The notes below the pieces were generated by a model. It searched no databases. It was not told where the DNA came from and was given only the letters and a program-made list of their open reading frames with translations. A program made the translations under genes and the position numbers. This document shows positions 7,155-7,365 of a stretch of 64,000 bases of DNA, in pieces; position 1 is the stretch's first letter; the number at the start of each line of letters is the position of its first letter. The stretch is from positions 1-64,000 of the forward strand of contig JAGVJP010000088.1 in NCBI GenBank assembly GCA_020051075.1, given 5' to 3'. Origin of the DNA: Parachlamydiales bacterium. GTDB lineage: Bacteria; Chlamydiota; Chlamydiia; Chlamydiales; Parachlamydiaceae.

Positions 7155-7187
7155 AAAAAAAAACCGCACCTCTTGCGAGAGTGCGGT
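7155..7187 (-). terminator. Intrinsic terminator (attenuator 3:4 hairpin) in the brnQ leader
   Basis: mRNA ACCGCAC-U-CUC-GCAA-GAG-GUGCGG followed by U9, about 32 nt before the brnQ ATG. Confidence 0.9.
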
Positions 7188-7219
7188 CTCTAATTCAACC
7201 TATATTTAGCATAAGCCAA

Positions 7220-7303
7220 TCACATAGGTCCGCACCTCCAAATGGTGTGGATCATAATAATCATCTGCATGCTAATGATATCTATCTGTTGGTTTCTAAA
7301 CAT
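7220..7303 (-). CDS. Ile/Met-rich leader peptide of the brnQ attenuator (27 aa)
   Basis: MFRNQQIDIISMQMIIMIHTIWRCGPM*: 7 Ile and 5 Met; overlaps attenuator segments 1 and 2. Confidence 0.8.
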   Translation of the reverse strand: MFRNQQIDIISMQMIIMIHTIWRCGPM

Positions 7304-7335
7304 AGTAAAGGCCAATTTCCTTTCAATAAAGGTTT

Positions 7336-7365
7336 ATTGTACCACAAATGCCTCTAATAGTGCAA
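7336..7365 (-). promoter_or_regulatory. Putative sigma70-type (sigma66) promoter for leader-brnQ
   Basis: TTGCAC (7365-7360), 18-nt spacer, TACAAT (7341-7336) preceded by TGn extended -10. Confidence 0.55.

Follow-up and report, generated by a model that had tools for sequence, protein, structure and literature searches.

Bacilli place Ile, Leu and Val T-boxes before genes for LIVCS carriers (brnQ), where antitermination by uncharged tRNA raises the amount of carrier; the same survey counted no T-box in 10 Chlamydiae genomes (accessible part of PMC2494555). The host-associated bacteria Staphylococcus aureus and Listeria monocytogenes have ribosome-mediated ilv-leu attenuators with a leader rich in branched-chain amino acid (BCAA) codons (accessible part of PMC6123439), and the leader ORFs mgtM and mgtP stand in series before the mgtCBR transporter operon of Salmonella (accessible part of PMC3641672). 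The trpL leader of Chlamydia trachomatis, the sole annotated leader peptide of chlamydiae to have been examined, is given as unvalidated and was rated poorly as an attenuator; YtgR works in trans (accessible parts of PMC3937554 and PMC7755916). The open literature searched, including the accessible part of PMC4833913, describes no chlamydial brnQ attenuator; subscription literature lay outside the scope. In the accessible part of the Naville and Gautheret supplement (PMC2965389), brnQ rows name only B. anthracis, H. ducreyi and S. amazonensis, and the five Protochlamydia gene rows concern genes other than brnQ.

Here, we report a leader upstream of brnQ in a Parachlamydiales bacterium (GenBank assembly GCA_020051075.1, labelled G000; 99.9% complete, 5.7% contaminated). 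The window is the whole stretch of DNA analysed, 64,000 nt of contig JAGVJP010000088.1. From sequence comparison and folding models, the leader is very probably a leader-peptide transcription attenuator, likely turning on brnQ when ribosomes stall at Ile codons. The attenuation mechanism is textbook; the chlamydial lineage and the importer target appear undescribed.

Methods

Units were collected with a covariance model built from 10 units (model 1), a second covariance model (model 2) and a pattern scan of metagenomes. A total of 59 distinct units were analysed, 58 with sufficient flank. Left out before codon counts were L010, L091, L092, L093, L119, L120 and L121 (plain terminators or other leaders), L051 (no anchor found), L142 (at a contig end) and, for want of an ATG in range, the second unit of L135. 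Further weak matches (L154, L156, L158) were plain terminators, and 14 of 18 loci in a later set were not family units.

The control window was defined as codons -12 to -4 relative to segment 2 (513 codons over 57 units). Alignment A3, which has 61 rows and was fitted to the terminator model, served for the scoring of pairing; two of its rows are spurious reverse-strand matches. Stalled ribosomes were modelled by equilibrium folding, with 13 nt masked from the A-site codon and segment 4 not yet transcribed.

Results

All of the elements that an earlier note had named from the letters of the window were verified base for base at their minus-strand positions (Table 1): the promoter-like TTGCAC-18-TACAAT, the 27-codon ORF with 7 Ile and 5 Met and its MQMIIMI cluster (0 Leu, 0 Val), the pairing of segment 1 with segment 2 (one A-C mismatch), the identity of segment 2 with the terminator 3' arm (7172-7164), the pairing of segment 3, and a GCAA-loop terminator with U9 ending 32 nt before the brnQ ATG (7122). 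The note had overlooked the middle hairpin, which is conserved. With its 18-nt spacer, the promoter-like pair agrees with the sigma-70 consensus at 8 of 12 positions, below the cut-off of the consensus scan, so it is absent from the scan list. An AAGG lies at a comparable distance from the leader start in several relatives, and many relatives are without one. The downstream gene had been called a branched-chain amino acid carrier, and its BrnQ family is borne out by Pfam (185.8 bits against a curated cut-off of 22.3).

Table 1. Features of the brnQ leader and its neighbors in the window
Feature	Positions	Strand	Basis or remark
MORN-repeat gene, upstream	7645..8424	-	
84-aa ORF, upstream	7354..7608	-	
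Predicted -35 box TTGCAC	7360..7365	-	Sequence; overlaps final codons of the 84-aa ORF
Predicted -10 box TACAAT	7336..7341	-	32 nt 5' of leader ATG; start site is a prediction
Shine-Dalgarno-like AAAGGA, weak and distant	7318..7323	-	Sequence; 14 nt 5' of Met1
Leader ORF, 27 codons, start Met1	7220..7303	-	ORF list and conservation; stop within middle hairpin
Control-codon patch Met12-Ile18 (MQMIIMI)	7250..7270	-	Conserved positions are Ile15, Ile16 and Ile18
Segment 1, 5' strand of weak, putative 1:2 pause/protector helix	7244..7251	-	Sequence and folding
Segment 2, antiterminator 5' strand	7230..7238	-	Sequence and folding; inside ORF at codons 22-25
Middle hairpin with stop codon, top of antiterminator domain	7199..7228	-	Folding and compensatory changes
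Segment 3, common to antiterminator (2:3) and terminator (3:4)	7177..7187	-	Folding and alignment
Intrinsic terminator, 3:4 hairpin, GCAA loop and U9	7155..7187	-	Predicted, -17.1 kcal/mol
GCAA loop	7173..7176	-	
U9	7155..7163	-	
brnQ, PF05525	5980..7122	-	PF05525 E 1.8e-54

The window leader folds at a z score of -2.78, and none of 200 shuffles was as stable. Only 5 of 195 terminator-like hairpins in G000 have a 9-nt upstream copy of their own 3' arm, and of the other four, two sit in one direct repeat. A genome-wide scan for a terminator combined with a codon-biased short ORF gave 44 candidates among the 195; eight were inspected and none was convincing.

To judge from its relatives, the window leader belongs to a family of leader-peptide attenuators that is conserved among chlamydiae. 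Model 1 had matches in 24 of 73 genomes of the same family (21 real on inspection) and 20 of 150 genomes of the same order (16 real on inspection), and in one place only in G000. Model 2 had matches in 16 of 151 genomes of the phylum and in none of the 27 genomes of family f33 (one of which was scored only partly), and the metagenome scan gave 13 loci. A close brnQ (E 1e-95 or better) is present in 35 genomes of the family, and in 19 of them the unit stands directly upstream. The units are kin, so these family counts overstate independence. Comparison of chlamydial brnQ upstream regions, a check that the earlier note had proposed, found the Ile codons and the stems conserved in relatives.

The remaining 16 of the 35 closest brnQ genes are without this unit directly upstream, and several have different Ile-rich leaders that lack a U-tract. 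One type (L011, L013, L016, L018, L165-L168) is an Ile-rich leader that ends in ..IGS and has a GGCAG/CTGCC hairpin where the ORF stops; another (L169-L171) ends in an Ile run. Both types precede a close brnQ and are without a U-tract terminator.

Other leaders were noticed during the search. L091/L102 (G081:C18:19650-19766) has a Phe-rich leader and a terminator before genes for a class I/II aminotransferase, an unknown protein and a Trp/Tyr permease, and is a candidate aromatic amino acid attenuator. L010 and L092 (G010:C2) are two copies, 2.5 kb apart, of a divergent Phe/Ile-rich leader with terminator, one upstream of brnQ and the other upstream of an unrelated gene; a local gene duplication apparently carried the leader along.

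The leader ORF is evidently under selection as codons. An ATG-started ORF crossing segment 2 and stopping within 8 codons is conserved in 57 of 58 units, which answers the earlier concern about the leader frame in relatives; 51 of the 57 keep the frame of the window and 6 are shifted. In the control window, Ile makes up 198 of 513 codons (shuffles, 46.3±6.1), Val 51 (26.2±4.5), Met 22 (8.0±2.7) and Leu 28 (66.7±7.3), with 0 in-frame stops (31.5±5.3); in the two shifted frames, the stops number 39 and 26. Ile is the commonest residue at each of codons -13 to -5 over the 57 units, and its patch lies 4 to 12 codons before segment 2. ATA accounts for 3 of 198 Ile codons in the control windows, against 6385 of 49531 in the long ORFs of G000.

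The suggestion that translation may start at Met12 did not hold. A Met lies 16 to 25 codons before segment 2 in 55 of 57 units and at the position of Met12 in only 2 of 57; Met1 is therefore taken as the conserved start. Of 45 single or first units, 30 have a promoter-like pair 20 to 45 nt 5' of the leader ATG, against 3.5±1.8 in shuffles; among second units of tandems, 1 of 10 has one.

These counts bear on a rival reading, in which the hairpin is no more than a terminator for the MORN-repeat genes upstream, or a fixed damper, and the Ile-rich ORF is a by-product of AT-rich DNA. The MORN-repeat genes are indeed co-directional with the leader, no terminator is listed between them and it, and the terminator is favored at equilibrium folding. 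Against this, the unit travels with brnQ, ilvB or leuC whatever genes lie upstream, composition-matched shuffles have a fourth as much Ile, along with about 31 stops, ATA is avoided among the leader Ile codons, and the U-tract leaves a gap of only 32 nt to the brnQ ATG. The terminator-or-damper reading is thus largely refuted, and we grant it only the slimmest chance. The C terminus of the 84-aa ORF is weakly like that of the preceding MORN-repeat protein (E 0.007), and the ORF is possibly a shrunken duplicate.

The RNA core is conserved as structure. In A3, the terminator and middle hairpin together were 91.7% paired, with two-sided changes in 17 of 24 pairs (equalled by 0 of 500 shuffles). 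The terminator helix alone was 96% paired, with two-sided changes in 7 of 13 pairs, and the base helix of the middle hairpin had compensatory changes in all 5 pairs. The antiterminator 2:3 was 91.9% paired, compared with 36 to 48% when slid; its covariation was not above shuffles (score 59/500; only 4 cells with a two-sided change), because the core is nearly invariant. The best single antiterminator cases are L155 and L131, both outside A3, in which segments 2, 3 and 4 have all changed in concert. Pairing in helix 1:2 is kept mainly by wobble changes in segment 1 (2/500 shuffles). In the 5' half of the leader, conservation is of the codons rather than of structure.

A tRNA-, metabolite- or protein-binding switch (T-box, riboswitch or TRAP-like) acting on the same terminator/antiterminator pair would likewise leave a conserved core with alternative helices, and T-boxes control LIVCS carriers in Firmicutes (accessible part of PMC2494555). 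Such a switch is scarcely credible here: the conserved 5' half is one of codons, Rfam at gathering score had nothing over the leader and only two tRNAs in the window, and no T-box matched in the window or in G000. Three Rfam matches under gathering score were rejected. The window holds two adjacent tRNA genes with CAT anticodons (12828-12982, minus strand).

RAGP-type motifs of SecM-like peptides resemble the R-C-G-P-M with which the leader peptide ends. The residues R, C, G and P are conserved at codons 0 to 3 (48, 49, 47 and 38 of 57 units), as would be expected if the peptide were a nascent-chain arrest motif (SecM/TnaC type) whose own stalling sets read-through. Yet 6 of 57 units have this RNA in a different reading frame with the Ile/Val patch kept, Arg is encoded by AGG in 44 of 51 cases and Pro by CCT throughout, changes of Pro to Ser or Leu come with compensating changes in the middle hairpin, and the same motif also ends the Thr/Ala leaders described below. 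Peptide-driven arrest was rejected on the frame shifts, the fixed codons and the Pro swaps that track RNA pairs, and is very improbable. The conserved RCGPM is, as the aligned units read, an RNA-level constraint.

The three helices (1:2, 2:3 and 3:4) exclude one another. Computed energies were -17.1 kcal/mol for the terminator, -24.4 for the antiterminator domain and -9.3 for helix 1:2. In the stall model of the window leader, the probability of 2:3 was 0.98 to 0.99 with the ribosome stalled at any position between codon 9 and His19 inclusive, 0.10 at Thr20 and 0 beyond, the loss with segment 2 masked being a consequence of how the mask is built. Possible control codons by this model are Ile9, Ile10, Ile15, Ile16, Ile18, Met12, Met14 and Met17, with Ile21 and Met27 excluded. 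Across the family, 2:3 forms in 56 of 57 units with a stall 5 to 8 codons before segment 2. With no ribosome, its probability is 0.64 in the window copy and exceeds 0.5 in 30 of 57 units. At equilibrium, the terminator wins in the full-length leader wherever the ribosome is placed (P 0.91 to 1.00), and the switch must therefore be kinetic.

The earlier note had stalling mask segment 1 and thereby permit 2:3. The model agrees that 2:3 forms on a stall and does not make the masking decisive, as stalls that leave segment 1 free also permit 2:3. In the folding model, the deciding step would be the ribosome running over segment 2, with the masking of segment 1 secondary.

From folding and the established trp/ilv/thr model, the switch may be pictured as follows. 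When Ile-tRNA is plentiful, the ribosome would trail RNA polymerase across segment 2 to the stop codon; with segment 2 covered, segment 3 would pair with segment 4 and transcription would end near 7155. When Ile-tRNA is scarce, the ribosome would wait at Ile15, Ile16 or Ile18, and segment 2 would capture segment 3 before segment 4 emerges, so that brnQ is transcribed. Met12, Met14 and Met17 lie in the permissive zone, where a fall in Met-tRNA would also favor read-through.

The control codons change with the downstream gene, which supports the attenuator class and the Ile signal in this comparison of units. The same RNA core lies before ilvB operons at L110, L116 and L141 with Ile/Val codon patches (TPP enzyme, KARI and IlvD families verified in the L110 operon), and a degraded ilv operon follows a unit with an Ile/Val patch at L153. 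The leuC operon leader has Leu at 6 of 18 codons, compared with 22 of 495 elsewhere, both leuC units being from one genome. Five units of family f5 (L155, L157, L176, L178, L185) have Thr or Ala at 31 of 45 codons with 0 Ile and 0 Val, and precede a distant BrnQ clade that is 32 to 34% identical to the window BrnQ. The codons thus fit the downstream gene: Ile/Val before ilvB, Leu-enriched before leuC, and Ile before PF05525 (predicted substrate). In a BrnQ tree (a quick version with many open forks, and with regex labels that miss some units), the proteins behind Thr/Ala leaders form one long-branch clade, and leader-bearing brnQ mixes families. The Thr/Ala leaders before this clade suggest carriers of small neutral amino acids.

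Tandem units occur at 14 loci (L003, L008, L031, L048, L050, L072, L109, L112, L135, L110, L116, L141, L128 and L086), nine before brnQ, three before ilvB, one before leuC and one before an unassigned gene. Each pair sits behind one promoter-like site, each unit with its own terminator; the window copy is single. No difference in Val between first and second tandem units can be claimed (10/81 and 12/72 codons). At L118, one leader is followed by two terminators in series. Units also precede genes other than brnQ and ilvB at L101 (G059:C378), L153 and L177, namely, a 248-aa protein with no Pfam family, a 108-aa ORF at the head of ilvN/ilvC-like genes, and an unknown protein of 354 aa. By eye, the product of the gene that follows the G059 tandem had resembled a mitochondrial-carrier protein, an assignment dropped as Pfam gave no family.

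Taken together, the frame, codons, helices and promoter position are conserved as the proposed trpL/ilvL-type attenuator controlling brnQ predicts. Induction by Ile and possibly Met starvation had also been proposed; the Ile signal is supported, and Met is secondary, occurring in 16 of 57 control windows.

The same attenuator could nonetheless be a true two-signal sensor of Ile and Met, selected because chlamydial BrnQ also carries methionine; we regard this as possible, leaning mildly against it. The BrnQ of C. trachomatis is competed for by Phe, Leu, Ile or Met in excess, with rescue by Val (accessible part of PMC11140210). The Met excess over shuffles in the control window points the same way, as does a comparison of one-step neighbors of Ile codons other than Val and Leu: codons -9 to -5 hold 17 ATG against 0 Phe, 2 Thr, 6 Asn, 7 Ser and 2 ATA. 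The window copy itself has 3 Met in its control window, the maximum of the 57 units. However, 41 of 57 units have no Met there, and the rate of Met is similar in ilv/leu leaders (2/63 codons) and brnQ leaders (20/432). At codon -6, Met, Val and Ile alternate (9, 13 and 20 of 57), the pattern expected of an ATG/GTG transition. Phe, the other BrnQ competitor, is absent from the control codons, Met starvation would also reduce leader initiation, and the C. trachomatis work concerned a BrnQ other than this paralog. That Met sensing matters in the window copy stands at about even odds; as a trait of the whole family, its odds are low, and we do not treat it as one.

Neither IlvB/C/D/E and LeuC/D nor RelA/SpoT was found in G000 (99.9% complete). 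With no ilv/leu pathway in G000, import is probably the sole response available for control, and regulated import is a plausible output of the brnQ leader there. tRNA-Ile(GAT) was not found in the G000 assembly, probably being unassembled together with rRNA. Some environmental chlamydiae have full ilvB-ilvC-PALP-ilvD and leuCD operons (L147, L148, L149), which G000 lacks.

The second brnQ of G000 (C68:2971-3093, minus strand; L196/L197) has a different leader type, a 40-codon ORF with four Val codons at its end, joined to a small GTGCGC/GCGCAC-type hairpin, which is followed by a pyrimidine-rich stretch without a U-tract terminator. The small hairpin recurs in 20 of 30 related loci. The earlier note had called the lack of Leu and Val codons in the window leader unusual: the absence stands, and it is less odd given that the other brnQ of G000 has its own Val-rich leader.

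Discussion

How chlamydiae sense amino acid shortage is an open question, to which this attenuator family, if true, gives a direct answer for environmental lineages; a textbook device would have moved from biosynthesis to nutrient import. The codon patch may also serve as a label of transporter substrate: Ile for the window BrnQ, Val for its paralog (with a different leader type) and Thr/Ala for a third clade.

A wider picture, unlikely as a whole, is that of a portable cassette that would run amino acid uptake in environmental chlamydiae lacking a stringent response. Its RNA core would be fixed and its codon patch rewritten for each cargo (Ile/Val, Leu, Thr/Ala and, here, Ile plus Met), with doubling behind one promoter to sharpen or combine signals. 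The window copy would then truly sense both Ile and Met for a BrnQ that carries Met, and the BrnQ clade behind the Thr/Ala copies would be one importing small neutral rather than branched-chain amino acids.

Among chlamydiae, the putative trpL of C. trachomatis and C. felis and the YtgR WWW attenuation are the only cases of amino acid attenuation that we found discussed in the accessible parts of the sources; compared with chlamydial trpL, the brnQ leader has the full classical anatomy and family-wide conservation. The T-boxes of Bacilli have the same target family and the same logic, whereas a T-box reads tRNA directly, without an ORF. The S. aureus and L. monocytogenes attenuators control synthesis under CodY (accessible part of the source), and the chlamydial brnQ leader is predicted to control uptake. 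In Salmonella, mgtM and mgtP are two unlike units responding to ATP and proline (accessible part of the source); the chlamydial tandems are homologous duplicates with their own terminators behind one promoter-like site.

The closest likeness is to E. coli ilvL (ilvGMEDA), thrL (RF00506), ivbL and leuL, which the window leader is modelled to resemble in working. ATT/ATC Ile codons and GTGCGG/CCGCAC-like cores look alike in the E. coli leaders and the chlamydial units, and the latter also head ilv and leu operons. By score, the window leader falls outside Rfam Thr_leader (RF00506; 15.4 bits, E 2.4, gathering 55). The chlamydial model gives 27.2 bits for thrL and 17.9 for ilvL, compared with 40 to 131 for family members; plain reverse-strand terminators reach 34.7 bits, so thrL and ilvL score at terminator level. 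Unlike the E. coli leaders, most chlamydial copies would control an importer in genomes that, like G000, are without the pathway, and 14 loci are tandem.
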